NCBI GenBank assembly: GCA_934446675.1
Contig: CAKSEL010000007.1
Span: forward strand, 445 to 64,444
Source: an uncultured Eubacteriales bacterium
Lineage (GTDB): Bacteria; Bacillota; Clostridia; Oscillospirales; CAG-382
Length of the DNA: 64,000 nucleotides
Reading direction: 5' to 3'
Shown here: positions 3,242-44,241 of the stretch, piece by piece
Position numbering within the stretch: the first letter of the stretch is position 1
How the letters are laid out: each line of letters starts with the position of its first letter
Translations under genes and position numbers: made by a program
The notes under the pieces: model-generated
Database searches by the model: none
Told to the model about the DNA's origin: nothing
The model's input: the letters and a program-made list of their open reading frames with translations, nothing else

Positions 3242-5602
3242 ATGAAAAAAGTATGTATTTCAAAAAACTGGCTGTTTTGCTCCCCCGACTTTAACGGCAC
3301 GTCAACCGTCGATCTGCCGCACGATTACTCCATAAAGCTTCCGCGCGACAAAAACGCGCCTGATCACGGTTCCAACGGTTTCTTCACCGGAACAAGCGGA
3401 GAATATACAAAATATATGACGTTTGACGACAGCGCGCATACAATTCTCGATATAGACGGCGCATATATGTGCGCGAGAATCAGCTTTAACGACAATCAGA
3501 CGGATATGCACCCCAACGGATATATGCCGTACCTCGTGGATATTTCCGACAGAGTACGCCCCGGAAGAAACAACAAGATCTCGATACACGTTACAAACGT
3601 TCAGCCCTCAACGCGCTGGTATTCGGGTTCGGGCGTTTACAGAGATGTGTTTATATGGACGGGCGGAAAAATAAGAATAGAGCCGTGGGATCTCTACGTC
3701 ACAACCGAAAGCATATCCGAAAAAAGTGCAAGAGTCGCGGTGCGCACCTGTATAAGCGCTGATTACGGCGCAAATATAAAGCTCGAATTTGACTTTGCCG
3801 ACAAAAACGGAAATACCGTTCTTTCAAAAACTCAGAATGTTGACGTTGCCGCAGGCAAAAATGATTTTGTGTTTGACTTTGACATCGGAAATCCCATGCT
3901 TTGGGACTGCGATAATCCAAACCTCTACACTCTCGGCGTAAAAATTTTTTCGTCTGACGTATGCGAGGACGAATTTACCTCTCGTTTCGGAATAAGAACG
4001 GTACAGACCGACGCCGAAAACGGTCTGCGCCTTAACGGAAAGTCCGTAAAGCTTCACGGCGGCTGCATACATCACGACCATGCCCTGCTCGGCAGCGCAG
4101 AATATCCGGCAGCCGTCAGAAGAAAGCTTGAAAAGCTGAAATCCGTCGGATTTGACTCGGTTCGCACGGCACACTGTCCTCCGTCGCTTACATTTCTCGA
4201 GCTTTGCGACGAAATGGGCATAATCGTAATGGACGAGGCGTTCGACGTGTGGAACAAGCCAAAAAAAATCATGGATTACAGCCTTTGGTTTGCCGATTGG
4301 TGGGAAAGGGATATAAGCTATATGGTAAAGCGCGACAGAAGCCACCCATGTGTATTCTCTTACTCTGCCGGAAACGAAATAATCGAATGCAACGGAAGTT
4401 CCGACGGTTACGTATGGGCGAAAAAGCTGGCTGACGAAATAAGAAAATACGATACGACGCGCCCCGTCACAAGCGCTGTATGCTGTATCCGCGACGAGCC
4501 GAATCCATATGCGCCCGACGATTATAAGCAGGATTACAAAAAGCTTGTAATGCTCGATTATCCGGATACAAACAGCTCATGGGACGAAAGAACCGAAAAA
4601 TACATGGATCCGTTGGACATTGTCGGGTACAATTATATGTTTGAAAGATATGCCAAAGATCGCGAAAAATATAAAGACCGTGTTATATGGGGTTCCGAAA
4701 CGCACGCGCTTTATTTCTATGATTCATGGAAAGCCGTAACGGAAAATCCTAACGTAATAGGCGACTTTACATGGACGGCATACGACAATCTCGGAGAAGC
4801 AGGAACAGGAAGATTCGGCTGGGGCGGCGACGGCGTTTATATCCGCGGAATTTCCATTGCGGACTATCCGTGGAGAGCCTGCTATCAGGGAGATTTTGAC
4901 CTTTGCGGAAACCGCAGACCGCAGTCTTATTTCAGAGAGGCAATCTGGAAGGACATGACAGCGCCGCACATTTTCACAACTCACCCAAAGCGCAACGGCG
5001 ACTGTTTTTCGGGTACGGTCTGGCACTGGTACGACGTTCACGAAACATGGACGTTTGACGAAGAATACATAGGACAGCCCGTAAAAACCGACGTATACAC
5101 AACAGCAGACGAAGTTGTATTCTATCTCGGCGAAAAGGAAGTCGCAAGAGCCGTTCCCGAAAAAGCCATAGCCACGGCATATATTCCGTATCAGCCCGTA
5201 AAACTGACTGCCGCCGCATACAGAAACGGCAAAGAGGAATGCAAATTTTCGCTTTGTCCCGTAAACAAGGCGCACGGGCTGACAATAACTCCCGACAAGG
5301 ATAGTATCAGAGCCGACAACCGCGATCTGTGCTACTTTGACATAAGCGTGACCGACAGAGACGGAAATCCCGTGACGGACGGAGAGCACGAGATCAGCGT
5401 TACGGTTTACGGTGCGGAACTCATAGGCGTGTACGGCGCAAATCCCTGCAACGAAGATATGTACGGAACGAACAAATGCCACACCTTTGAAGGAAAAGCG
5501 CTGGCGGTGGTAAAGGCGGCGTCGCCCGACTATGTAAGAGTTTTTGTAAGCTCGTGCGGACTTAACGGCGCGGTTGCTTTCATTCCCGCGATACAGCCTT
5601 AA
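3242..5602 (+). CDS. Glycoside hydrolase family 2 (beta-galactosidase/beta-glucuronidase-like)
   Basis: Start chosen at MKKVCISKNW, with AAGGAG ~9 nt upstream. GH2 blocks are VRTAHCPPS, MDEAFDVW and RDRSHPCVFSYSAGNEI. No signal peptide. Confidence 0.85.
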   Translation: MKKVCISKNWLFCSPDFNGTSTVDLPHDYSIKLPRDKNAPDHGSNGFFTGTSGEYTKYMTFDDSAHTILDIDGAYMCARISFNDNQTDMHPNGYMPYLVDISDRVRPGRNNKISIHVTNVQPSTRWYSGSGVYRDVFIWTGGKIRIEPWDLYVTTESISEKSARVAVRTCISADYGANIKLEFDFADKNGNTVLSKTQNVDVAAGKNDFVFDFDIGNPMLWDCDNPNLYTLGVKIFSSDVCEDEFTSRFGIRTVQTDAENGLRLNGKSVKLHGGCIHHDHALLGSAEYPAAVRRKLEKLKSVGFDSVRTAHCPPSLTFLELCDEMGIIVMDEAFDVWNKPKKIMDYSLWFADWWERDISYMVKRDRSHPCVFSYSAGNEIIECNGSSDGYVWAKKLADEIRKYDTTRPVTSAVCCIRDEPNPYAPDDYKQDYKKLVMLDYPDTNSSWDERTEKYMDPLDIVGYNYMFERYAKDREKYKDRVIWGSETHALYFYDSWKAVTENPNVIGDFTWTAYDNLGEAGTGRFGWGGDGVYIRGISIADYPWRACYQGDFDLCGNRRPQSYFREAIWKDMTAPHIFTTHPKRNGDCFSGTVWHWYDVHETWTFDEEYIGQPVKTDVYTTADEVVFYLGEKEVARAVPEKAIATAYIPYQPVKLTAAAYRNGKEECKFSLCPVNKAHGLTITPDKDSIRADNRDLCYFDISVTDRDGNPVTDGEHEISVTVYGAELIGVYGANPCNEDMYGTNKCHTFEGKALAVVKAASPDYVRVFVSSCGLNGAVAFIPAIQP

Positions 5603-15985: not shown

Positions 15986-17212
15986 TCATCTCAAACCGCA
16001 CATTTTTTTGACATCAGCAAGGCTCATATTGTTCTCTCTTGCAATACGTGCAAGATCCTCAAATTCGTACTTTTCTCTTGTAACGCCGAATCCCGACGAT
16101 ATCTTTTTACGCACTTGTCCGTATTCAGTCATTACCGAATCAAAAGAGCGTGAAAGGGTATATCTTCGGCTGATATTCTCCCTCACCCCGAGAGTTGTTG
16201 TATGCCTGAATATCAGACGTATTATTTCATCTTTATTCTTTTCACAGCACATAACCGTAAGCAGCGTTCCCGGTCTGGATTTCTTCATTTGCACCGGTGC
16301 CGTATATACTTCAACAGCTCCGGCAGCAAAGAAACGTTCTTGTGCAAATCCTATCGCCTCGGCAGTCATGTCATCAAGATTGCAGACAAGTTCAACGATT
16401 GTATCACTCTTTTCATTCGTCTCGCCAAGCAGTGCTCTTACGCAGTTTGCATTTTCAAAATCCTTTTTTCCCATACCGTAACCTATTGCCGACACTTTCA
16501 TTACCGGCATATCTCCAAAGTCCGACGCAAAATGTTTAAGCAGTGCGGTGCCGGTAGGAGTACACAGCTCACTTTTGATTTCGCCGCTGTAAAAAGGAAT
16601 GCCCTGCAGAATATATGCTGTTGCAGGTGCCGGAACCGGCAGAATTCCGTGGGCGCATTTTACCTGACCGCTGCCCGTATTTACAGGTGATACCACAACA
16701 TTCTCTGCGGACAGGTATTCCATTAACATACAAACCGCCGTTATATCCGCAACAGCGTCCATTGTCCCCACTTCGTGAAAATGTATCTGTGAGACGGGAA
16801 CGCCATGAACATGGCTTTCCGCCTGTGCGATAATTGAATAAACCGCCATAATATCGTTCTTTACCTTTTCCGACACATTCAGATTCTCAATAATGTGCTC
16901 TATCGCGTGCATACTGCTGTGGTGATGCGTATGTTCTTCACCATGCGAATGTATGTGGTCATGATGTAAGTGCTGACCGTTTTCATGCGAGTGCGGCATT
17001 TCCGATTCCACTTCTCCGCCGGCTTTTACCGTAATATGTGTGCCTTTGATTCCGCACTTTACCGAAGTTTCGCATATAAATTCAACTTCCGGAATACCGG
17101 CATGATTAAGCTTATCAACAAATTCCGCCTTGTCGGAAACAAGTTCAAGCAATGCCGCCGTAAGCATATCTCCGGCTGCTCCCATACCGCAGTCCAAATA
17201 TAGTGTTTTCAA
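15986..17212 (-). CDS. larC: Nickel-pincer cofactor biosynthesis protein LarC (nickel insertion, DUF111 family)
   Basis: 408 aa with a TTG start 1 nt after the larB stop. N-terminus MKTLYLDCGMGAAGDMLTAALLEL. His-rich metal segment HSHENGQHLHHDHIHSHGEEHTHHH. Confidence 0.9.
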   Translation of the reverse strand: MKTLYLDCGMGAAGDMLTAALLELVSDKAEFVDKLNHAGIPEVEFICETSVKCGIKGTHITVKAGGEVESEMPHSHENGQHLHHDHIHSHGEEHTHHHSSMHAIEHIIENLNVSEKVKNDIMAVYSIIAQAESHVHGVPVSQIHFHEVGTMDAVADITAVCMLMEYLSAENVVVSPVNTGSGQVKCAHGILPVPAPATAYILQGIPFYSGEIKSELCTPTGTALLKHFASDFGDMPVMKVSAIGYGMGKKDFENANCVRALLGETNEKSDTIVELVCNLDDMTAEAIGFAQERFFAAGAVEVYTAPVQMKKSRPGTLLTVMCCEKNKDEIIRLIFRHTTTLGVRENISRRYTLSRSFDSVMTEYGQVRKKISSGFGVTREKYEFEDLARIARENNMSLADVKKMCGLR

Positions 17213-17213
17213 T

Positions 17214-17966
17214 TTATTTTACCTCCATATGATTAATCATGCTTGCAAGATACCCTGCCCCGAATCCATTGTCGATATTGACCGCAGACACTCCGCTTGC
17301 ACAGGAATTCAGCATAGATAAAAGAGCGGATAGTCCGTTGAATGACGCACCGTATCCGACGCTTGTGGGAACTGCTATTACCGGACAGTCCGCAAGTCCT
17401 CCGATCACACTTGCAAGCGCGCCCTCCATTCCGGCTACGGCAATTATAACGCTTGCGCTCATTATTTCGTCAAGGTGTGACAGCAGCCTGTGCAGTCCGG
17501 CAACGCCGACATCATATAACCGCACAACTTCATTTCCGTGCACTTCCGCGGTAAGCGCAGCCTCCTCAGCCACCGGAATATCGCTTGTTCCGCCAGTTGC
17601 CACAACAATTTTACCGATCCCGTCAGCGTCCGGAATTTTCCCTATGATTCCGATTTTTGACTGTTCATGATAATCAATATCGTATCTTTCGGCTATTTTT
17701 TCGGCAGCTTCCGTATAAAGCCTTGTAACAAGTATGGTCTTCTGCCCGTTTTGCCTCATTTTTTCTATTATCCCTATTATCTGTTCCGGAGTTTTACCGG
17801 CTCCGTATATAACCTCCGGCATACCTTGACGAATATTGCGGTGCAAATCTATTTTAGCATAGCCTATGTCCTCAAACGGTTCTTTTTTCAAAGCCAATAC
17901 AGCGTCGTCAACCAAAATACTCCCGTCGCGTACTTTTTCCAATATTGTTTTTAAACCGGTCTTCAT
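17214..17966 (-). CDS. larB: Nickel-pincer cofactor biosynthesis protein LarB (PurE-like carboxylase/hydrolase)
   Basis: 250 aa. DLHRNIRQGMPEVIYGAGKTPEQI and a PurE-like C-terminal half. ATGA start/stop overlap with larE. Confidence 0.9.
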   Translation of the reverse strand: MKTGLKTILEKVRDGSILVDDAVLALKKEPFEDIGYAKIDLHRNIRQGMPEVIYGAGKTPEQIIGIIEKMRQNGQKTILVTRLYTEAAEKIAERYDIDYHEQSKIGIIGKIPDADGIGKIVVATGGTSDIPVAEEAALTAEVHGNEVVRLYDVGVAGLHRLLSHLDEIMSASVIIAVAGMEGALASVIGGLADCPVIAVPTSVGYGASFNGLSALLSMLNSCASGVSAVNIDNGFGAGYLASMINHMEVK

Positions 17967-18709
17967 TTGCGCACCTCCAAATCAAGCAGAACGCCGGAAT
18001 AATACTTTTTTAATTCCGAAATAATAATTTCACGCTTTTCGAGTACCTGTGCAAGCTGATCGGCAGGTACCTGTATTTTTGCTGAATTTCCCGTTTTTCT
18101 CACTCTGAAATTACTGAATCCGAGAGAAAACAAATAATTTTCCGCCATCTCCGTCGCTCTCAGTTTTTCCTCTGTAATACGTTCGCCTGCCGGAATACGG
18201 GTTGCAAGACAGGCATAGGCCGGCTTATTCCATGTGAACAGCCCGGCTTCTTTTGAAAGCCGGCGAATTTCGCTTTTTGTCAATCCGCACATACGCAGAG
18301 GAGAAAATACGGACAGTTCTTGCAAGGCTTTCATACCGGGACGGTCCTGCGCATCATCAGACGCATTTGTTCCGTCAAGCAAAACTGTAAATCCGTCATC
18401 TGCCGCCTGCTTTTTTATGGTTTCAAATATTGTTTTCTTGCAGTAGTAACAGCGATTGTTCGGGTTAGACGCTGTTTTTTCATCAGCAAGCACATCTATA
18501 TGCAGCGTTTTCATCTCCGCACCAACCTGTTTTGCCAAACGCACGGCGTCCTCGTATTCAAACTGCGGCTGAAAAGCCGATTTTGCATAATATGCGCACA
18601 CTTTTTCCGCATGGAGCTTTGCAAAATAGAAAAGATATGACGAATCGACGCCGCCGGAAAACGCGACCGCAACCTTTGTATGTTCCCTGAAAAAATCTTC
18701 TAAATTCAT
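17963..18709 (-). CDS. larE: ATP-dependent sacrificial sulfur transferase LarE (PP-loop ATPase)
   Basis: Start moved to MNLEDFF (AGGGG 7 nt upstream). PP-loop VAFSGGVDSS and CYYCK motif. Confidence 0.9.
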   Translation of the reverse strand: MNLEDFFREHTKVAVAFSGGVDSSYLFYFAKLHAEKVCAYYAKSAFQPQFEYEDAVRLAKQVGAEMKTLHIDVLADEKTASNPNNRCYYCKKTIFETIKKQAADDGFTVLLDGTNASDDAQDRPGMKALQELSVFSPLRMCGLTKSEIRRLSKEAGLFTWNKPAYACLATRIPAGERITEEKLRATEMAENYLFSLGFSNFRVRKTGNSAKIQVPADQLAQVLEKREIIISELKKYYSGVLLDLEVRK

Positions 18710-18725
18710 ATGATACCCCTGTATT

Positions 18726-18762
18726 AAAAACGGGCAGCTCCGCAAATCATACAGAGCAGCCC
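18726..18762 (-). terminator. Weak hairpin plus U5 between the small membrane-protein genes and larE (possible partial terminator)
   Basis: Minus strand: GGGCTGCTC...GAGCTGCCC (one mismatch) followed by gTTTTT, in the 62-nt gap before larE. Confidence 0.3.
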
Positions 18763-18771
18763 TGCGGCTGT

Positions 18772-19086
18772 TTATTTCTTTCCGAATAATACGTTCTTAA
18801 CAACGCCTTTGGGATCTTTAACAAGCAAATTTACGATCCAAATGCAAAGTCCGAATGCCACGGCAGACAAGCCCAGATAAAAATCGTTAAGCATATCTGC
18901 CGGCGAAGGCGTAAAATACGCTGTTCCGAGTTCCGCATATTCAAAAATTGCATCGGCAAGCCACATGAATGAGGCACCCCAATACATAAGTGTCAGAAAA
19001 CCTAAATTTATATCGCTTTTCGGAGCATTGTTATACCAGATGACCGTGCAGATAACTGCCGCAAATACCGTTGTCAGCAAAGTCAT
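18772..19086 (-). CDS. Small 3-TM membrane protein, unknown family (paralogous to the upstream gene product)
   Basis: 104 aa from MTLLTTVFAAV (AGAGGG 9 nt upstream). Three hydrophobic helices and the motif LMYWGASFMWLADAIFEYAE. Confidence 0.6.
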   Translation of the reverse strand: MTLLTTVFAAVICTVIWYNNAPKSDINLGFLTLMYWGASFMWLADAIFEYAELGTAYFTPSPADMLNDFYLGLSAVAFGLCIWIVNLLVKDPKGVVKNVLFGKK

Positions 19087-19088
19087 AA

Positions 19089-19502
19089 TTATATGCCCTC
19101 TTTTGCGGTTTCCGGTACACTTAACGCTTTCTTTTCGATAACAGTGCTTACCGCAACCATGCCGAGCCACACCGCTGTGACAATAGCAGACATCAATACT
19201 CCCGTGCTTCCGATTTCTGCGAGCATCTCAGCTGTTTCTCCGGTTTTGACTGCCGTAAGAAACGGAAAGAATGGAACAACTTCACCGTGCCATACATGCT
19301 CAAAAGCAAGCAGTGCAGAACCTCCCCACAGCATTTTGTTGAGCCAGCCGAGTTTTACGGAAAACGGAATCTTTACCGTCTCCACCGTTGTTTTTTCGGA
19401 AAGAGAAATACTTTCGTTTTCTCTCTTTTCCTGTGATTTAACCGCCTTTGCCGCGATTGTTGTGATGACTGCTTCAGCAGCCGGAGCAATAAAACATGCC
19501 AT
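19089..19502 (-). CDS. Small 3-TM membrane protein, unknown family, His/Glu-containing loop
   Basis: 137 aa from MACFIAPAAEAV (AGGAGG 8 nt upstream). Motif KMLWGGSALLAFEHVWHGE parallels that of the downstream gene. Its stop abuts the next start. Confidence 0.6.
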   Translation of the reverse strand: MACFIAPAAEAVITTIAAKAVKSQEKRENESISLSEKTTVETVKIPFSVKLGWLNKMLWGGSALLAFEHVWHGEVVPFFPFLTAVKTGETAEMLAEIGSTGVLMSAIVTAVWLGMVAVSTVIEKKALSVPETAKEGI

Positions 19503-19670
19503 GATCAAAAACCTCCTGAAATTTCCGGCGAAAATATATAAAAAAGAAGGCATAACGGCTCTCTTCTGAAAAACCGCATACCTTCATAGTACACATAATC
19601 GCCTGTATTGATTTAAAATTTTGTTAATATCCGTATGCTTCGGCATACATATCGGAATTCATATTCCGAT
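19503..19670 (-). promoter_or_regulatory. Structured ~165-nt 5' leader (candidate riboswitch/attenuator) of the membrane-protein/lar genes
   Basis: Two perfect hairpins sit at the predicted 5' end: ATCGGAAT/ATTCCGAT at 19651-19670 and GTATGC/GCATAC at 19633-19648. An intrinsic terminator lies at 19540-19585, upstream of the RBS. Confidence 0.45.
19540..19585 (-). terminator. Leader-internal rho-independent terminator
   Basis: Minus strand: GAAGGUAUGCGG-loop-CCGUUAUGCCUUC followed by U6, ending 38 nt before the start codon at 19502. Confidence 0.55.
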
Positions 19671-19676
19671 GGGAAT

Positions 19677-19705
19677 ATTTTACCATATTTTAAGAGTGAT
19701 GTCAA
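19677..19705 (-). promoter_or_regulatory. Sigma-70-type promoter with extended -10
   Basis: Minus strand: TTGACA (19705-19700), 17-nt spacer ending in TGG, TAAAAT (19682-19677). Confidence 0.6.
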
Positions 19706-19722
19706 TATTTAACGGCAAAGTT

Positions 19723-20355
19723 TTACTTTATTTCTTCAAAAACCTTAAGCCATTCGCGAGCTATAAGCTCATGTCCGGCAGGTGTCGGATGAATACCCTC
19801 ACCCGTCCAGAATCCGTTTACCGGATACTTTTCATAAGCCTCATCAAAGGCTTTCTGAAGCGGCACATACTTTAAATTATACTTTTCTGCAATGAGTTTC
19901 GCTTTTTCCGCGCGAAGCCCGACCTCGTACTTAAAATCGTTCCATACGGTGTCCGTAAACGAGCCGTGCGTCACATAAGGCTCCATAATCATTATTTTGA
20001 TATCCGGCAATGCCTCAAGAACTTCTTTTATAAGCATATCATAAATCATAAAGTATTTATCCGCGTCAACGCCGTTTCTGTATTCCTCGAACTCATGCCA
20101 GACGTCATTTACGCCGACAAGTATACTCATAACGTCGGGCTTTAAATTGATTATATCCACCTTGATGCGGGCATACAGGTCAACAATTCTGTTTCCGCCG
20201 ATACTGCGGTTGTAAAATTTGTATTCTCCGGGATTCTCATAGTCCATCTTTCCGACTATTCTTAACGGATAGCCTTGTCCCGGAAACTCTTTGCCGCGTT
20301 CTCTCGGACGGCAGCAGTCTGTTATGGAATCTCCCTGAAAAAGTATTGTTTTCAT
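19723..20355 (-). CDS. SGNH/GDSL hydrolase (carbohydrate esterase-like)
   Basis: 210 aa. Block I MKTILFQGDSITD, block III GVNDVWH, C-terminal DGIHPT. Confidence 0.85.
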   Translation of the reverse strand: MKTILFQGDSITDCCRPRERGKEFPGQGYPLRIVGKMDYENPGEYKFYNRSIGGNRIVDLYARIKVDIINLKPDVMSILVGVNDVWHEFEEYRNGVDADKYFMIYDMLIKEVLEALPDIKIMIMEPYVTHGSFTDTVWNDFKYEVGLRAEKAKLIAEKYNLKYVPLQKAFDEAYEKYPVNGFWTGEGIHPTPAGHELIAREWLKVFEEIK

Positions 20356-21352: not shown

Positions 21353-21757
21353 TTACAGTATTTTTTCAAGCTCTTTTACAGCGTTATCTATCAGCTGTAC
21401 GACAGTAAAGCTTGAAGCGCCGGCAACAATGTTGTCGCAGTGGTTCATGGGCAGCAAAATACGTTTCGCCATGCTCTGTCCGACGGCAAGCGCCATTGAC
21501 GGTGTGATCTCTCCGTACATTGCGTCTGCAATTACGATACCGATAGGCCCCATAATAATATCAGCTTTGCGGCAGCCGACAATAACAGCGTTCTCACCGG
21601 TTGCGGCATGATCCGCACCGGCTTTTAACATTGCCGCCGTTGCGATTGTATTTGTTCCCACCGCCGTTATTACGGCTTTCGGCACTTTTTCTCTTATTGC
21701 CGCAACAAGCTGCCTGCCTATGCCGCCGCCCTGCGCATCTATGATCAATATGTTCAT
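21353..21757 (-). CDS. DUF3842-like small protein
   Basis: 134 aa. MNILIIDAQGGGIGRQLV N-terminus, recalled from the DUF3842 family. Confidence 0.65.
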   Translation of the reverse strand: MNILIIDAQGGGIGRQLVAAIREKVPKAVITAVGTNTIATAAMLKAGADHAATGENAVIVGCRKADIIMGPIGIVIADAMYGEITPSMALAVGQSMAKRILLPMNHCDNIVAGASSFTVVQLIDNAVKELEKIL

Positions 21758-43386: not shown

Positions 43387-44241
43387 TCAAACCTGCAAAA
43401 CGGTAATTTTGTGTACCGCGTTGTATGTCTGTCCCTTGTCCAGTTTTATTATGCCTTCTTTTTTTGTAATATCATAATCCGAACCGACAATATCCTGTAT
43501 TCCGTCCCACGGCTCAAGACATATATACGGGGCATTCTGTTTATGCCAGATAAGGAAATACGGAGCAAAATCAAAATCAATCTTTACAGCCCTTGTGCCC
43601 GTCCTGCTTCTCAGAATTGCGGACTTTGATTTAAGTTCTTTGAAAACAAGGGCGTCTACCGTAAAGTATTTTTCGTAAAGCGGAAGTACATTACAGTCTT
43701 TTATGATCGGCAAAAGCTGATCTGAAAGAAGGTTTCCGTAAAGCACATACGAATTAAGCGTTTCGGGCTGAGGAAATACAACATCGTAATTTTCTATACC
43801 TTCCGGTGTGTAATATCCCTCGTGCGCTCCTATGGAAAAGTACATTGCGCCCTTTGATTTATTATCTACACGATACGAAATACCGAGAGACGTATTTTTC
43901 AGCTCATACGTTATTCTCAGCTCGTAGTCAAAGGGATAGCAACGCTTTGTTTCATCATTTGACTTGTGTACGAGAACTACTTTTTTGTCGTCTGCATATT
44001 CGGTAACGAAAGAAACCGTACTGCCGAAACCGTGCTTGGGCAAAACATATTCTTTTCCGTTATACGTGTACTTATCGTTCTTCAGTCCGCCGCATATCGG
44101 AAATAATAGCGGAGAAGATCTGTTCCATATCTCTTTGCACGACTGCCATATATACTCTTTTTCGTCGCAGACCATGCTTTTCAGTTCCGCACCGAGTTCA
44201 TTTATCTTTACTTTTACTCTGTCGTTTTGTAAAGTCAGCAC
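43387..44241 (-). CDS. Aldose 1-epimerase family protein (mutarotase-like)
   Basis: Start set at GTG 44241 (GAGGTGG 6 nt upstream). LTLQNDRVKVKINELGAELKSM and FPICGGL...YNGKEY.LPKHGF are typical of LacX/aldose-epimerase-family proteins. Confidence 0.8.
   Translation of the reverse strand: MLTLQNDRVKVKINELGAELKSMVCDEKEYIWQSCKEIWNRSSPLLFPICGGLKNDKYTYNGKEYVLPKHGFGSTVSFVTEYADDKKVVLVHKSNDETKRCYPFDYELRITYELKNTSLGISYRVDNKSKGAMYFSIGAHEGYYTPEGIENYDVVFPQPETLNSYVLYGNLLSDQLLPIIKDCNVLPLYEKYFTVDALVFKELKSKSAILRSRTGTRAVKIDFDFAPYFLIWHKQNAPYICLEPWDGIQDIVGSDYDITKKEGIIKLDKGQTYNAVHKITVLQV

Follow-up and report, generated by a model that had tools for sequence, protein, structure and literature searches.

We analyzed a stretch of 64,000 nucleotides (the window) from contig CAKSEL010000007.1 of an uncultured Eubacteriales bacterium (assembly GCA_934446675.1). 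Its minus strand carries the genes larE, larB and larC for biosynthesis of nickel-pincer nucleotide (NPN), a cofactor, preceded by the genes for two small membrane proteins, which we call MP1 and MP2. The subject of this study is the leader of approximately 168 nucleotides that separates a promoter from MP1, the first of these genes. The leader elements (19705-19500) are all located on the minus strand and are listed together with the genes in Table 1. The leader RNA is real, widely conserved and so far undescribed. The region is best explained as a member of a new and widespread family of leader RNAs that act by transcription attenuation and gate nickel uptake and NPN cofactor synthesis in gut Clostridia.

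Table 1. Elements of the leader and genes at the locus. Positions are those of the window; SD, Shine-Dalgarno sequence; MFE, minimum free energy; aa, amino acids.
Feature	Position	Strand	Details
Promoter, sigma-70-type	19677-19705	-	TTGACA 19705-19700, 17-nt spacer, extended −10 TGgTAAAAT, −10 hexamer 19682-19677
P1 hairpin	19651-19670	-	DNA ATCGGAAT-ATGA-ATTCCGAT, RNA AUCGGAAU-AUGA-AUUCCGAU; predicted 5′ end of the transcript
P2 hairpin	19633-19648	-	GUAUGC-CGAA-GCAUAC; covariation; GAA 19 nt after the P1 GAA
Variable linker	19604-19632	-	sequence unconserved between loci
P0, 5′ strand	19599-19603	-	GGCGA; pairs with 19531-19527 in the MFE fold
P3, antiterminator hairpin	19576-19594	-	strand a GUGUAC 19594-19589; loop UAUGAAG 19588-19582; strand b GUAUGC 19581-19576
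Intrinsic terminator	19540-19585	-	5′ arm 19585-19569, 3′ arm 19563-19546, U6 19545-19540
P4, terminator tip	~19573-19559	-	UUUUUC-AGAA-GAGAG; GAA 19 nt after the P3 GAA
P0, 3′ strand	19527-19531	-	UCGCC; between U-tract and SD
SD and start codon of the first regulated gene	19500-19517	-	AGGAGG 19517-19512, ATG 19502-19500; protein start MACF... kept in 79 loci
MP1	19089-19502	-	137-aa membrane protein; candidate nickel importer subunit; 5388 homologs
MP2	18772-19086	-	104-aa membrane protein; always adjacent to MP1
larE, larB and larC together	15986-18745	-	NPN cofactor biosynthesis genes
larE	18745/18709-17963	-	TIGR00268 at 3.5e-79
larB	17966-17214	-	NF033503 at 3.1e-88
larC	17212-15986	-	LarC1/LarC2; PF01969 at 1.3e-137
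SGNH hydrolase	20355-19723	-	between DUF3842 and leader
GH43 glycosidase	21283-20438	-	between DUF3842 and leader
DUF3842 gene	21353-21757	-	134 aa; candidate trans-acting factor; PF12953 is its only Pfam family

An earlier note on this DNA, made by inspection of the letters, had described the promoter, two hairpins (here P1 and P2), a terminator with a U6 tract and a ribosome binding site, and all of them were found on the minus strand where it had placed them. The promoter scores 11 out of 12, has in addition the extended −10 TG and is the top promoter-like site in a scan of 6 kb (15.5-21.5 kb). An equivalent promoter (at least 10 out of 12) is present in 26 of 35 orthologous leaders, with the −10 element ending 5-10 nt before P1. 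Transcription is predicted to start approximately 7 nt past the −10 hexamer, which would make P1 and P2 the 5′ end of the RNA. The 170-nt leader folds with −54.4 kcal/mol, compared to −32.6 ± 3.4 kcal/mol for dinucleotide shuffles (z = −6.3; none of 200 shuffles was equal). As the earlier note had proposed, orthologous loci were inspected for compensatory base changes: the elements recur there with such changes, and they are therefore far beyond what chance would produce.

Eighty genome loci were collected by MP1 homology alone, and the leader is present upstream of MP1 in 34 of them; the RNA motif as such was seen in Clostridia of gut and rumen, where the number of loci is well above 100. The family is built in the order strong promoter, P1, P2, an unconserved linker, the hairpin P3 competing with a terminator, and P4 at the terminator tip. 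The 3′ block has the consensus GUGUAC-yAnGAAG-GUAUGCG-UUUCUC-nGAA-GAGAAA-nGUAUGCC-U(5-7). For P1 and P2, 82.8% of the alignment cells are paired (67.5% after shuffling) and 101 cells carry double changes (37 after shuffling); none of 500 shuffles scored as high, and slid controls were only 31-40% paired. P1 shows changes on both sides at all seven pairs. In P2, pair 36-45 is CG 22 times and UA 12 times and is never unpaired, and pair 37-44 is AU (19), GC (13) or GU (2). Over 58 distinct sequences, pairing in P3 and P4 amounts to 97.2%, and eight of the 12 pairs show compensatory changes. For P3 alone, which is formed by the strands a and b, 98% are paired in the same number of distinct sequences, and double changes are found at three of six pairs (for example GC46/AU6/GU5, UA27/UG20/CG10 and AU38/GU12/GC6). 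RNAalifold, applied to the 3′ block, selects P3 (GUGUAC with GUAUGC) and P4. The terminator is kept in all 62 aligned leaders.

Covariance models were built for P1-P2 (R1) and for the P3/terminator part (R2). In the window R1 matches 19630-19676 (29.4 bits, E = 2e-4) and R2 matches 19534-19607 (70.7 bits). Each model has one match per motif locus, every time within the 5′ leader. No further copy of the motif was found in the 64-kb window or in the flanks of the loci; the sole extra R2 match (43398-43470, 17.8 bits, E = 0.77) is noise. Several other explanations for the conserved elements were rejected. A reading of the palindromes as DNA operators was discarded, since covariation is seen in the stems and the loops are constant. 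Attenuation by a leader peptide was dismissed because no conserved open reading frame or SD is present in the leader and the linker is unconserved; the AUG at strand a runs into stop codons in many leaders (AUG UGU ACA UAG in L014-16, for example). A T-box does not fit the size of the element.

The earlier note had recognized no known riboswitch class in the leader and had suggested an Rfam scan that includes the NiCo/czcD model. With Rfam 15 at gathering thresholds no match was obtained in the 64-kb window and none in 15 other leaders. At E ≤ 10, the region 19450-19760 yielded noise only, the best being Gut-1 with 21.8 bits (its gathering score is 50), and NiCo/czcD did not match even at this cutoff. 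In the searchable literature no connection of lar genes, the nickel-pincer cofactor or DUF3842 with a riboswitch or another RNA motif was found, and a paper from 2026 on lar gene neighborhoods does not mention regulation.

A G+C-containing hairpin, with a U-tract directly after it, is located past the promoter and ahead of the first start codon. Strand b and the preceding GAAG are common to two structures: in P3, b is paired with a, and in the terminator GAAG and b belong to the 5′ arm, which pairs with strand c (GUUAUGCCUUC) and CCUUC. The alternative helix, which is supported by covariation, and the terminator arm are mutually exclusive. The earlier note had described the leader as an attenuator with mutually exclusive terminator and antiterminator folds in front of the membrane-protein/larEBC operon, and the covarying P3 sharing b with the terminator supports this design. 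The terminator has a folding energy of −20.7 kcal/mol in the window and of −16 to −27 kcal/mol in 28 other leaders. It is the MFE structure in all 29 leaders folded; the alternative with P3 and P4 has −7 to −18 kcal/mol and is 6-14 kcal/mol weaker. Therefore an activating factor that stabilizes P3 should be needed for read-through, and termination would be the default state.

An additional helix, P0, is formed by the strand 5′ of a and a stretch between the U-tract and the SD, and brackets P3/terminator in the read-through RNA. In a targeted shuffle test with 22 MP1-class leaders the P0 duplex has −9.25 kcal/mol versus −5.71 kcal/mol for the shuffled sequences (Wilcoxon p = 2.6e-5), and covariation is visible (CAGGUAG/CUACCUG, CAGGCGGC/GCCGCCUG, GGAUGAU/AUCAUCC). 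A global test of cognate versus non-cognate P0 duplexes, made earlier, was not significant (p = 0.09). Many leaders also contain a segment past the U-tract, d, that is complementary to c in the 3′ arm of the terminator. The 3′ strand of P0 and d are transcribed only beyond the termination point, so that both helices are possible only in the read-through RNA. Roles in mRNA stability, in translation and in locking the ON state were considered for P0 and d.

Strong conservation is limited to four GAA triplets, each located on the 3′ side of an apical loop. The P1 loop of the family is A-n-G-A-A (AUGAA, AAGAA, AGGAA and similar), the P2 loop is nGAA closed by C-G (AGAA, UGAA or CGAA), the P3 loop has 7-8 nt and ends with GAAG, and the P4 loop is AGAA or UGAA. 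The GAA of P3 is invariant in all 58 sequences, with G-A-A-G-G invariant or nearly so, and the GAA is near-invariant in P1, P2 and P4, in loops of different size (4, 5, 7-8 and 4 nt). The triplets are repeated in a fixed register, four GAA in two hairpin pairs with an equal spacing of 19 nt: from P1 to P2 the mode is 19 nt (range 16-20), from P3 to P4 it is 19 nt in 54 of 58 sequences, and in the window both distances are 19 nt. The second pair, P3-P4, is formed solely in the antiterminator fold.

The linker between the two hairpin pairs ranges from ~15 nt to ~540 nt across loci. In L176 (6594-7055) the linker contains an open reading frame for a signal-anchored protein of 153 aa that belongs to no family, and L157 keeps only a remnant of it. 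Strains of the species with leaders in front of larE differ by an insertion of ~300 nt in the P2-P3 linker that resembles a miniature inverted-repeat transposable element (L081, L158, L159 and L164 versus L095). L135 has no P2, and L061 has neither P1 nor P2. The 3′ arm of P2 is duplicated in locus L109: GTGTCCAAA occurs there as four tandem repeats, located after P2 and ahead of the linker. Two degenerate leaders, L043 and L061, located ~70-100 nt upstream of MP1, have a strong terminator after the promoter and no P1/P2; L043 is also without strand a, and L061 without the GAA loop of P4.

To cover loci regardless of the downstream gene, metagenome contigs were scanned with a gene-independent pattern for the region from b to P4, which yielded 89 stretches. 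Twenty-two of these lie before MP1-MP2, approximately 50 directly before larE-larB-larC in one very abundant gut species, and three before larB-larC. One (L162) precedes a transporter consisting of FecCD permease, ATPase and binding protein, and two (L157 and L135) precede the S component of an energy-coupling factor (ECF) transporter. Four stretches (L103, L110, L113 and L152) are chance matches in coding regions and were discarded. P1-P2 were also found in the motif classes derived from metagenomes. In L182/L183 (10001-16525) the leader is followed by larE-larB-larC, SBP_bac_5 and two BPD_transp_1 genes, an ABC importer of the Nik/Opp type. These loci belong to a very abundant human-gut Clostridiales species whose LarE cluster has 1430 members, and no larA was found there within 10 kb. 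The motif is also located before MP1-MP2 pairs that are not followed by lar genes. The regulon consists of larE/B/C and four kinds of importers: MP1-MP2, Nik/Opp-type, FecCD-type and ECF S component. This composition suggests that the signal is the status of nickel or of the cofactor, and it strongly reinforces the connection with both that the earlier note had drawn.

MP1 and MP2 belong to no Pfam or NCBIfam family. MP1 is approximately 70% identical across Clostridia, Treponema and others, with an invariant N-terminal MAC(F) and an invariant FEHxWHGE motif; its AlphaFold model is unusably poor (predicted local distance difference test score, pLDDT, 54). The MP1-MP2 pair usually precedes larE/B/C in Clostridia, Treponema and Elusimicrobia. 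MP1-MP2 looks like an undescribed nickel importer and probably is one. The Treponema loci L024 and L034 are without the RNA motif and carry Fur-box-like palindromes (AATTTGATAATGATTATCAAATT) ~150-200 nt upstream of MP1-MP2-larEBC (about 3800-3950), which suggests that a DNA-binding metalloregulator might do the same job there. The closest relative of the window, L054 (URVJ01000010.1, a metagenome-assembled genome of UMGS1387; 96-98% aa identity), is without the SGNH gene, the entire leader, residues 1-56 of MP1, larE, larB and the middle of the GH43 gene; this reflects either decay of the locus or an error of assembly.

In most of the other loci the distance from the end of a DUF3842 gene to P1 is ~40-50 nt; in the window, two inserted genes (GH43 and SGNH) intervene. 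Among the genomes selected by MP1, 27 of the 34 loci with the motif have DUF3842 immediately upstream, compared to one of the 45 MP1 loci without it (Fisher p = 1.3e-13, uncorrected for phylogeny). The single motif-less locus with DUF3842 is L009, which has a divergent leader. Loci with motif and DUF3842 are dispersed over the MP1 tree among loci without the motif, and the unit of DUF3842 and leader is combined with different downstream genes: MP1-MP2, larBC (L123) or an ECF S component (L176). The linkage is thus tight, but not absolute.

DUF3842 proteins are usually stand-alone and form 877 clusters at 50% identity (E ≤ 1e-10). The structural model is confident (pLDDT 88) and Rossmann-like. 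Invariant are GGGxG, K45, R99 and C107, and C62, R63 and H106 are ~90% conserved. Two representatives (P0391 and P0436) are fused to CooT, a nickel-binding accessory protein of carbon monoxide dehydrogenase; the CooT part matches PDB 6FAN at 2.6e-16, and one of the fusions is encoded directly after CbiQ and an ABC ATPase. The fused DUF3842 parts are without the NHCDN and GCR motifs, as if CooT might have replaced a metal site. No meaningful sequence match of DUF3842 to any solved structure was obtained, and Foldseek returned generic Rossmann/flavoprotein matches (template modeling scores 0.4-0.57). Homology to HutP, PyrR or TRAP was found neither with Pfam nor by sequence match to solved structures nor with Foldseek. 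Arabinose- or arabinan-related genes directly follow DUF3842 in two unrelated contexts, namely FGGY kinase-AraA-AraD (L170/L174/L178; DUF3842 at 10001-10405 of L178) and the GH43 and SGNH esterase genes of the window (21283-19723). This adjacency may be a coincidence or a hint of a sugar-linked role for DUF3842.

The evidence leans toward a leader that is read by a protein and not by a small molecule, because conservation is confined to the loops, unequal loops all end in GAA, the 19-nt registers are identical, huge linkers are tolerated and an activating factor would be needed. Operation by a protein is our tentative preference, with a chance that we put at slightly less than even. In such a mechanism the terminator would prevail when the leader is left alone and the operon would be off. 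Pairing of a with b would give P3; otherwise GAAG and b would pair with c, resulting in the terminator of approximately −21 kcal/mol with its U6 tract. An oligomeric RNA-binding protein could recognize the pairs of GAA loops and clamp P3 and P4, which would lead to antitermination. The best candidate for this factor is DUF3842, encoded just upstream, since the gene order is similar to that of hutP and pyrR, the Rossmann-like fold is of a nucleotide-binding kind, Cys and His residues are conserved and the CooT fusions tie the protein to nickel. That DUF3842 specifically is the effector is possible, yet we regard it as doubtful. For genes of import and biosynthesis, the simplest logic is that the nickel-free (or cofactor-free) DUF3842 protein would bind the RNA and turn the genes on, and the loaded form would release it, resulting in feedback repression.

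Two bacterial attenuation systems have a comparable layout. In the hut operon of Bacillus subtilis the regulator gene also comes first, followed by a terminator/antiterminator leader and the structural genes. HutP is oligomeric and binds repeated trinucleotides in two clusters ~20 nt apart; its ligand- and metal-activated form blocks the terminator. The differences are that HutP binds single-stranded UAG repeats and responds to histidine, whereas here GAA is presented in hairpin loops and nickel or the cofactor is proposed as signal; DUF3842 has no sequence or fold match to HutP, and its RNA binding is, unlike that of HutP, a prediction. PyrR is likewise a small nucleotide-binding alpha/beta protein at the head of its operon. 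It binds a conserved hairpin loop in terminator/antiterminator leaders, with several attenuators per regulon sharing one motif. By analogy, a nucleotide-binding alpha/beta protein such as DUF3842 could double as an attenuation factor. PyrR has a phosphoribosyltransferase fold and another RNA motif, and together with uridine monophosphate it stabilizes an anti-antiterminator and thereby causes termination; here binding should result in read-through, because the second GAA pair is displayed only in the antiterminator fold.

The targets of ANTAR proteins (EutV, NasR, AmiR) also consist of two small adjacent hairpins with conserved loop positions in a fixed register, the second of which overlaps the terminator, and protein binding there gives antitermination. 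They contain one hairpin pair and not two, and the loops are hexaloops with A1 and G4; the leader was rejected as an ANTAR target since its loops have 4, 5, 7-8 and 4 nt and end with GAA. No ANTAR-domain gene was noticed among the genes of neighboring loci that were looked at. Nickel-linked control of transport genes is known from the NiCo (czcD) riboswitch and from NikR, and the regulon found here overlaps with the nickel importers that NikR controls elsewhere. The NiCo RNA has a four-way junction and switches on exporters at high Ni/Co, and NikR is a DNA-binding repressor, whereas the stems described here covary as RNA helices.

The earlier note had located the switch in P2: its 3′ arm GCAUAC would leave the hairpin and pair with GUAUGC of the terminator. 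In such a mechanism P2 would act as an anti-antiterminator. This complementarity is indeed perfect over 6 bp in the window, and the 3′ arms of P2 are purine/pyrimidine-alternating like strand a. Family-wide, at least six contiguous pairs (G-U allowed) with GAAG and b are possible in 13 of 34 leaders, compared to 29 of 34 for a:b, and the median is five pairs including wobbles compared to six. P2 stems covary freely, regardless of b, P2 can be absent or up to ~540 nt distant from b, and both RNAalifold and the covariation counts favor a:b. The conserved, covarying antiterminator helix is therefore a:b and does not involve the 3′ arm of P2, which makes the proposed P2 route improbable. In a different, simpler reading the leader does not switch in response to a signal at all: its terminator would be leaky and constitutive and would in addition stop transcription from upstream, with P1/P2 as 5′ stabilizers or processing sites and regulation taking place elsewhere. 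Hairpins at the 5′ terminus do stabilize Firmicutes mRNAs, the degenerate leaders L043 and L061 retain the terminator alone, and no response to a signal is in evidence here. Stabilizer hairpins need neither invariant GAA loops nor a fixed 19-nt register; a covarying P3 that uses b in competition with the terminator is what marks a switch, and across gene types the motif keeps strictly to a single functional regulon. We thus give little credence to a leader without a switch.

The remaining question is whether the RNA itself senses the signal. A true riboswitch, the main rival, would bind Ni2+, NPN, its metal-free precursor P2TMN or nicotinic acid adenine dinucleotide (NaAD) through contacts of the GAA loops and thereby shift the balance between P3 and terminator. 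Some observations support this, weigh against a protein such as DUF3842, or do both. The regulon, in which a single cis-RNA precedes the genes for making the cofactor, for importing the metal and for salvage by FecCD-type or ECF transporters, resembles those of the cobalamin and molybdenum cofactor (Moco) riboswitches, and the intrinsic terminator is located within a highly conserved, covarying leader. Tandem hairpins with conserved loops and a variable linker can be a true riboswitch, as in guanidine-II (mini-ykkC), which shares with the leader simple hairpins with covarying stems and conserved, C-G-closed tetraloops. In the very abundant gut species with larE-class leaders no DUF3842 gene is found within 10 kb of the motif, and seven to eight MP1 loci have the motif but not DUF3842. 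Conversely, DUF3842 genes are located beside FGGY-araA-araD with no motif within 10 kb (L170/L178) and also beside a RelA/SpoT-like gene. The protein is not basic, with ~11 basic and ~11 acidic residues, and we know of no RNA-binding activity or RNA-binding homology for DUF3842. Its function could instead be that of a chaperone for nickel or NPN, or of an enzyme that depends on NPN, the co-location being incidental, and because the gap between DUF3842 and the motif is less than 50 nt, joint loss or gain of both can be a single recombination event.

The structure of the leader leans toward protein recognition. It lacks the conserved internal loops, junctions or pseudoknots of an aptamer, its conservation being that of GAA in unequal apical loops, whereas the cobalamin and Moco riboswitches are large multi-junction aptamers with proven ligand binding. 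Assignment to guanidine-II itself was rejected, as this class needs ACGR tetraloops, P2 and P4 have AGAA, UGAA or CGAA and P1 AnGAA, and Rfam gives no match. The ACGR loops kiss via C-G pairs, which nGAA loops cannot do; Watson-Crick pairing of GAA with GAA is impossible and loop kissing is thus not obvious. The leader differs from guanidine-II also by having four loops in two fixed-register pairs and an explicit terminator switch. The hairpin pairs can be up to ~540 nt apart or split by an open reading frame, and P2 or P1/P2 are sometimes missing. P0, P3, P4 and a c:d hairpin could build a multi-helix junction in the read-through RNA, but the 3′ strand of P0 and d are synthesized past the point of termination. 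Finally, since the terminator is far more stable than P3, the ligand would have to activate, which would be odd if importers were under the control of their own metal or of an end product. Altogether, a riboswitch is in our view rather unlikely. Taking the two outcomes together, we consider it moderately probable that either DUF3842 founds a family of metal- or cofactor-sensing RNA-binding antitermination proteins or the RNA alone is the first riboswitch for NPN or a precursor.

Knowledge of how NPN synthesis and the nickel supply for it are regulated is essentially limited to Lactobacillus, with its LarR. NPN itself is a cofactor that was discovered only recently, and the list of enzyme families relying on it continues to grow (PMC13524815). 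Attenuation by terminator and antiterminator is a known mechanism; new are the RNA family, the dual-hairpin logic with GAA loops, the regulon and the candidate factor. The leader offers a concrete, widely distributed cis-element for mutation, in its defined helices and in its four invariant or near-invariant GAA loops, which makes the regulation of NPN supply testable. Its regulon exposes the uncharacterized, very common MP1-MP2 pair as a probable new nickel importer, and a testable role is assigned to DUF3842. Either outcome, an RNA-binding attenuation protein or a riboswitch, would be a new regulator class in abundant Clostridia of the human gut and the rumen. If DUF3842 is indeed the factor that acts on the leader, the circuit would be the first one described in Clostridia that regulates the supply of the nickel-pincer cofactor.

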